64,000 bases of DNA, taken from the NCBI RefSeq assembly GCF_053078305.1, contig NZ_CP166879.1. The stretch is one strand, 5' to 3'. The translations under genes were made by a program, and so were the position numbers. How positions within the stretch are numbered: position 1 is the first letter of the stretch; each line of letters begins with the position of its first letter. This document shows positions 9,050 through 9,427 of the stretch, piece by piece. The notes below the pieces were generated by a model, which saw only the letters and a list, made by a program, of their open reading frames with translations, was not told the DNA's origin and did no database searches.

Positions 9050-9427
9050 GGTGCATATTCTGATAATGAAGAGATTGTGGAGATTCTGTGAAGATAGTTG
9101 ACAATATTAAGTTGGGGTAAATTCATCAGAAAGGCAGCTACTTGTTGTCGCCAGTTCTGTTTTCATCATCAAAATTATCGGAGCTAATACGAATAGTTTC
9201 ATAGTCAGATTCTATAAGATATTTCCCCAACCTACCCCTTGCAGGCGTCAAGAGTAGATAACGCAAAATGCTCTGTACCGCAGCTTCTCTCCGGTACAGA
9301 AAGCGCAACTATAGCCACCCACAGCCAGGTTGATTATAATAACCGTTTATCTGTTCGTACTGTTTACTAAAACGACGAATCGCCTGATTTTCAGGCACAA
9401 CAAGCATCAACAATAAGGATTAAAGCT

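Follow-up and report, generated by a model that had tools for sequence, protein, structure and literature searches.

The inverted repeat CTGTACCG-CAGCTTCTCTC-CGGTACAG (in short, CTGTACCG-N11-CGGTACAG) found upstream of fabI is probably neutral junction DNA with no selected structural or regulatory role; we put the probability of this reading at roughly 0.7. On this account, the few dozen bases between variable cargo (here, an efflux island) and the conserved fabI core promoter would host the palindrome, and its 9-bp stem would have arisen incidentally in one lineage. Sister lineages do not keep the stem, so nothing appears to depend on the pairing. Any effect of the haplotype on fabI would come from an absent FadR box rather than from the hairpin. 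We infer the absence of function; the location of the repeat, its linkage, and its lack of conservation were observed directly.

The repeat occurs once in the window (the whole 64-kb stretch of DNA analyzed), at 9273-9299. The preliminary description gave the correct sequence but the wrong coordinates (9266-9292), which require an offset of +7. The 8-bp stem noted there gains one T-A pair to become a perfect 9-bp stem (Table 1). Within it, a C.C mismatch (9281/9291) is followed by two further pairs (9282-9283/9289-9290, AG/CT) and a 5-nt loop (9284-9288, CTTCT). As described earlier, ycjD is missing here: the gene order is sapF-ycjD-fabI in K-12-type genomes, whereas in the window a five-gene efflux island separates sapF from fabI. 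Besides the TetR gene, the remainder of the island spans 1457-8268 on the minus strand, with sapF beyond. The RefSeq-style start of the TetR gene at 8950, with a good AGGAGA ribosome-binding site, gives an intergenic region of 477 bp (8951-9427). The earlier figure of 370 bp fits only the start of the longest ORF (ATG at 9049, 378 bp to fabI). The right end of the repeat is 12 bp upstream of the TAGCCA -35 candidate, and relative to the predicted fabI start site the repeat covers about -47 to -75. Thus, the proposal that it is part of the fabI regulatory region holds for its location in the upstream zone, although not for a role as an operator (see below).

Table 1. Coordinates of features in the window and identity to E. 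albertii along the TetR-fabI spacer
Feature	Position	Strand	Remarks
MFS transporter of efflux island	1457-2620	-	
Outer-membrane factor of efflux island, 457-aa gene	2629-4003	-	Frameshifted in window
RND permease of efflux island	4007-7114	-	Nonsense codon in window
Periplasmic adaptor of efflux island	7114-8268	-	
TetR/AcrR-family regulator of efflux island, 188 aa	8384-8950	-	Divergent from fabI; Pfam TetR_N
fabI, enoyl-ACP reductase, 262 aa	9428-10216	+	Followed by yciW and rnb
Hairpin just past sapF stop, left edge of variable segment	1415-1451		Also in K-12-type locus (L001, ~3366-3407)
Better operator candidate for island TetR	8976-8993		TGAGAATGA / TCGTTCTCA
Inverted repeat	9272-9300		Arms 9272-9280 (TCTGTACCG) and 9292-9300 (CGGTACAGA)
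Equivalent of K-12 FadR box	9291-9303	+	CCGGTACAGAAAG; 6 mismatches in 12 specified positions of CTGGTCnGACCWG; at -137 (K-12, -136)
Polymorphic position	9294		G in window, pairing with C9278; C in majority (B2-type) allele
Best sigma-70-like fabI promoter candidate	9312-9340	+	TAGCCA (9312-9317), 17-nt spacer, TATAAT (9335-9340); consensus match, start site predicted
Conserved block with fabI core promoter and 5' leader	9304-9427	+	In essentially all E. coli (5,420/5,426); 97.6% identity in E. albertii
Identity to E. albertii, TetR-proximal	8951-9100		90.7%
Identity to E. albertii	9101-9200		46%
Identity to E. albertii	9201-9271		63%
Identity to E. albertii, repeat	9272-9300		80%
Identity to E. 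albertii, core promoter and leader	9301-9427		97.6%

The island of the window carries two predicted inactivating lesions, in the RND permease and outer-membrane factor genes. The former has a premature stop at codon 76 of 1,035 (window position 6888, TTA to TGA relative to strain PE164). The 81-bp segment containing this nonsense codon has no exact match in any of 2,038 complete E. coli genomes; by this comparison, the stop is thus either a private nonsense mutation or a sequencing error. The outer-membrane factor gene has a 1-bp insertion at ~3293 relative to PE164, which splits it into ORFs of 211 and 243 aa.

The number of such repeats expected by chance was estimated with a first-order Markov model of the 64-kb window, counting perfect 9-bp stems with loops of 3 to 15 nt. 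The model gave ~3.7 (SD, 2.2) stems per window, and a scan of the full window would thus meet such a repeat by chance. The actual window contains ~14 distinct stems of 9 bp or more, the majority of them longer and terminator-like. For the 477-bp spacer alone, the expectation is ~0.02 such stems by our own arithmetic.

Alignment against complete E. coli genomes bears out the proposed link between the repeat and the island. Part or all of the TetR-fabI spacer is matched in 5,420 of 5,426 genomes, and 2,034 match it at full length. The TetR/RND/MFS island lies between sapF and fabI in ~2,040 of the 5,426 (~37%), hereafter called island type. The rest of the matching E. coli genomes, including the ycjD type, have only 9305-9427 in common with the window spacer, and in the K-12-type locus (L001, sapF-ycjD-fabI) near-identity to the window begins at GCAACTATAG (9304). 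No more than 5 bp separate the repeat from the point at which alignment between island-type and ycjD-type genomes starts. It is absent from island-less genomes rather than being a conserved part of their fabI promoter region; because these genomes align from 9304/9305 only, the repeat belongs to the island-linked haplotype.

Within that haplotype, the pairing is not maintained. A 57-bp probe across the repeat found a single location in each of 2,040 genomes. Among the ~2,040 island-type E. coli genomes, the perfect window allele has 566 exact matches, O157:H7 strains included, and 1,244 genomes, ST131-type strains included, exactly match an allele with C at 9294. This substitution (G9294C), also carried by strains M24, GCU-H1, and P4, replaces the C9278-G9294 pair by C.C; the left arm is unaltered, and nothing compensates at 9278. 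Pairing is disrupted in 61% of the island-type E. coli genomes. The homologous segment of E. albertii differs at 9278, 9293, and 9298, losing a pair with every substitution, and has a one-base insertion in the loop. In L008, a second Escherichia lineage outside E. coli, the island is present with a 98%-identical TetR protein, but the sequence to the left of GAAAGAGCAAC is unrelated. Of the four arm substitutions (one in the B2-type allele, three in E. albertii), every one disrupts a pair and none comes with a compensating change. Predicted folding of the 56-nt segment follows suit: the window scores z = -2.25, against -0.04 for the B2-type allele and +0.95 for E. albertii. Since the outgroup shares the G at 9294, E. 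coli may have had the perfect form ancestrally. Judged by the identities in Table 1, the repeat sits on a gradient of decaying identity away from the fabI core promoter and forms no island of constraint.

A FabI-based scan with one genome per species, which yielded 80 loci, places this junction in a wider context. In most Enterobacterales, sapF abuts fabI, 125 to 215 bp apart, with neither island nor ycjD between them; in Pseudomonas, a sapF-like gene also lies directly upstream of fabI. Among the scanned loci, the efflux island was found only in Escherichia (E. coli, E. albertii, and L008) and ycjD only in E. coli. The repeat had been described as possibly left when the island replaced ycjD. 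With the island in E. albertii, L008, and 37% of E. coli and ycjD in E. coli alone, the polarity is probably the opposite, and the island is probably the older occupant in Escherichia rather than a replacement of ycjD, in a sample that lacks E. fergusonii. Other genera carry other cargo, of 1 to 9 kb (L009-L017, L030, and L035): a 236-aa gene in Citrobacter; one to three ORFs in Enterobacter, Pluralibacter, Phytobacter, and the unclassified isolate RIT691; and, in Superficieibacter and Enterobacter ENT03, ~9-kb clusters of possibly fimbrial ORFs with signal-peptide-like N-termini. As these inserts are unrelated, Enterobacteriaceae have a recurrent insertion hotspot in the sapF-fabI spacer. Whatever the cargo, sequence conservation always resumes at the fabI core promoter. 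At the opposite edge of the variable segment, the hairpin past sapF has stem bases that differ between the two haplotypes (CCTCATCCTGA / TCAGGATGAGG versus CCTCATTCTGACAA / TTGTCAGAATGAGG). It looks like a real sapF terminator, which in the island type would be shared with the convergent MFS gene. In the K-12-type locus (3757-3990), ycjD is followed by a partial copy of its own 3' end (GGAGACGGTGCTGGAGAATATTC...) and GC-rich repeats (...GGGGAGAGGGTTAGGGTGAGGGG...), which presumably resemble Box C-type repeats.

A further difference between the haplotypes upstream of the core promoter concerns FadR. The primary paper defining the fabI FadR site is said to be that of My et al. 2015 (J Bacteriol 197:1862). 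FadR, a GntR-family regulator, recognizes a 17-bp palindrome, aaCTGGTCnGACC(T/A)Gtt, and its activating sites lie immediately 5' of the -35 element (PMC9329746). fabI is listed in the FadR regulon (PMC6339880); RegulonDB has been cited for a FadR site in the fabI promoter, and lower fabI expression upon loss of FadR has been reported (PMC8115981). In the K-12-type locus, we identified CCGGTCGGACCTG at 3988-4000, directly before the fabI -35 and at -136 from the ATG, which matches the FadR core consensus at 12 of 13 positions. A FadR-site coordinate of about -115 given in PMC8115981 is 7 to 9 bp from the edge of this box. No FadR-like site with three or fewer mismatches occurs at 9260-9320 of the window. 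Nor was a relocated box above chance found in the island-type sapF-fabI interval, the sole spacer match with three or fewer mismatches overlapping the TetR start codon. Only one site as good as the K-12 box (one mismatch) exists in the whole window, at 37128; it lies inside a Mu-type transposase gene and was taken as a chance match. This gene, a 702-aa ORF (35686-37794) with Pfam Mu transposase C-terminal and Mu DNA-binding domains, points to a Mu-like prophage, or what remains of one, in the window. By consensus matching, island-type E. coli (~37% of complete genomes) and E. albertii are thus without the K-12 FadR-like box, and we infer that fabI in island-type strains may escape direct activation by FadR. 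A missing consensus does not, as a matter of sequence matching, prove missing FadR binding.

Comparison across genera puts this loss in proportion. Eleven short-spacer loci (~ten genera) have TGGTCGGATTAAC, or a sequence differing from it by one or two bases, 104 to 116 bp upstream of the fabI ATG. Genera with other cargo have no FadR box and a different upstream module, CGTGACA-N17-TATAAT. Since the box is also absent in those genera, its loss is not unusual. In Yersinia, Budvicia, Xenorhabdus, Moellerella, Photorhabdus, and Arsenophonus (L031, L041, L042, L044, L046, L050, L056, L057, L059, and L060), palindromes such as CTGCTCGGAGCAG or CTGATCGGATCAG occur upstream of fabI, at about -128 to -192. 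They match a rough working consensus, CTGGTCCGACCTG, at 10 to 11 of 13 positions and may be FadR-type boxes in their genera.

Several functions for the palindrome have to be weighed against neutrality. A relic terminator had been suggested, and the window allele does fold stably as RNA on both strands (plus strand, -15.4 kcal/mol, z = -3.2 versus shuffles; minus strand, -18.8 kcal/mol, z = -2.6). Such a hairpin could act as a terminator or insulator, either on plus-strand read-through from the island into fabI or on minus-strand antisense transcription from the fabI promoter region, and GCAUUUUG follows it on the minus strand. Like an intrinsic terminator, the repeat is a short intergenic stem-loop with a stable predicted fold, but it has no U-tract (it is followed by AAAGCGCAAC on the plus strand and GCATTTTGCG on the minus strand), contains only 5 G-C among 9 pairs, stands at no gene end, and is unconserved. 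A scan of 8900-9500 on both strands returned no terminator-like site. No ORF ends at the repeat; fabI starts downstream, and the upstream TetR gene is divergent, so there is no co-directional gene end. Minus-strand promoter-like matches are likewise lacking in 9300-9427, and no gene or promoter-like site feeds the hairpin in either direction. Covariation is lacking, most relatives have lost the stem, and Rfam at E ≤ 10 gave no relevant family, the sole match being an archaeal snoRNA-type model (E = 4.6) elsewhere in the spacer. A terminator is thus not borne out, and a role as an RNA hairpin is very improbable. A recurrent hairpin at the FadR-box position across genera was also considered and rejected, 12 folded loci giving z scores of -1.2 to +1.2; in Pseudocitrobacter, an 8-bp inverted repeat (AATCCGAC...GTCGGATT) is found at that position. 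An operator, the other function suggested earlier, would mean that one or more dimers of the island TetR or of an unlinked factor bind CTGTACCG-N11-CGGTACAG and replace FadR control of fabI. The perfect 9-bp palindrome at an activator-type position, its occupation of the place of the K-12 FadR-like box, and its somewhat better conservation than the DNA to its left are consistent with this idea. Like TetR-family operators, the repeat is a palindrome in an intergenic region beside a TetR-family gene; unlike them, it is found at the opposite end of the spacer, >320 bp away from the start of the TetR gene, and neither covaries nor co-occurs with the regulator. The TetR protein is 96 to 100% conserved, yet 61% of island-type E. 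coli genomes, as well as E. albertii, have disrupted half-sites, and L008 lacks them. Moreover, no second genomic copy hints at a regulon, and the repeat is dissimilar to the conserved TetR-proximal palindrome at 8976-8993. A center-to-center spacing of 19 bp, as seen here, is unusual for a single dimer. We therefore consider a lineage-specific operator unlikely. A more far-reaching version holds that the FadR box of the essential gene fabI has been replaced in ~37% of E. coli (O157:H7, B2 ExPEC) and in E. albertii and that the O157:H7-type palindrome binds another regulator, creating a lineage-specific control circuit linked to the island. If this were true, fabI, the triclosan target, would be under lineage-specific control tied to the neighboring efflux island, but we regard it as quite improbable.

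The role of TetR-family operator is better filled by the palindrome at 8976-8993, which is located between a minus-strand promoter-like site (9030 to 9003) and the TetR start (8950). In B2-type E. coli and E. albertii, its symmetry is perfect over 18 bp (TGAGAATGATCATTCTCA), and L008 shows a single mismatch. This conserved sequence, TGAGAATGATC(G/A)TTCTCA, is likely the operator of the island TetR. Nearby, a 17-codon ORF (9048-9101, plus strand; MVHILIMKRLWRFCEDS) diverges from the TetR gene. It is near-identical in E. albertii (MAHILIMKRLWRFCEDG), unlike in L008, and probably reflects a conserved promoter/operator region rather than a gene.

The position of the palindrome, ≤5 bp from the boundary of the island-type/ycjD-type alignment, could instead mark it as a scar or target of recombination, i.e., the point at which a site-specific mechanism, or one that targets hairpins, exchanged the island or the ycjD cassette. 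The hairpin at the opposite end of the variable segment (1415-1451) and the status of the locus as a cargo hotspot in many genera fit this proposal. The island, however, has neither integrase nor transposase and no flanking direct repeats, the two end hairpins are dissimilar by inspection, and the palindrome is single-copy across 2,040 genomes. Other genera and L008 share the same right boundary at the core-promoter edge without a palindrome, and purifying selection on the promoter combined with homologous recombination in sapF and fabI would yield such a boundary. Recombination at the palindrome is accordingly hard to credit. Mobilization on plasmids was discarded as well: the palindrome-bearing "plasmid" matches are mislabelled chromosomes or very large records, and small Klebsiella plasmids carry fabI only, from about window position 9400. 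A repeat family (REP/BIME), for which dispersed copies would be required, was rejected at one copy per genome in 2,040 genomes. Like these elements and the GC-rich repeats after ycjD in K-12-type genomes, the repeat is a small extragenic palindrome at a variable locus, but it is single-copy, not GC-rich, and dissimilar to the post-ycjD repeats. LexA, FabR, and dif-like motifs were dismissed by eye on spacing or sequence. Finally, the palindrome could be a degenerate but functional FadR site, its right arm CCGGTACAGAAAG descending from the K-12 box CCGGTCGGACCTG and recruiting FadR weakly. The right arm ends 12 bp upstream of the predicted -35, where the rule for FadR as an activator would place a site. 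The distances to the ATG agree (-137 and -136), and the two haplotypes share CCGGT, which forms the first five bases of the right arm, and CCGCAGC further left. In contrast to the single mismatch of the K-12 box, the window segment has 6 mismatches among the 12 specified positions, including the entire right half-site; its center of symmetry differs, and its spacing is much wider. Nor are the two 40-nt segments significantly alike, as 143 of 2,000 shuffles score equally well (p about 0.07) and higher scores occur among other K-12 40-mers. On this ground, the palindrome segment was not taken to be homologous to the K-12 segment (shared CCGCAGC...CTCCGGT), and the relation between the island type and K-12 is thus positional, not demonstrably homologous. 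A degenerate FadR site is, in our estimate, the least probable of these alternatives and scarcely to be expected.

Neutral junction DNA remains the preferred reading, against which three observations must be set. The window allele folds significantly better than shuffles (z = -3.2), the repeat occupies a zone (-47 to -75) where activators and UP elements act, and it is more conserved relative to E. albertii (80%) than the DNA on its left. A lineage-restricted role may exist for the perfect allele, kept in 566 genomes including O157:H7.

By itself, the palindrome is of little import: it behaves as unconstrained DNA and is ordinary. The work on FadR and fabI was carried out in K-12, and the near-consensus box is missing from more than one-third of sequenced E. 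coli, major pathogen lineages included. If FadR activation differs between the haplotypes, the baseline level of FabI and tolerance to triclosan could shift.
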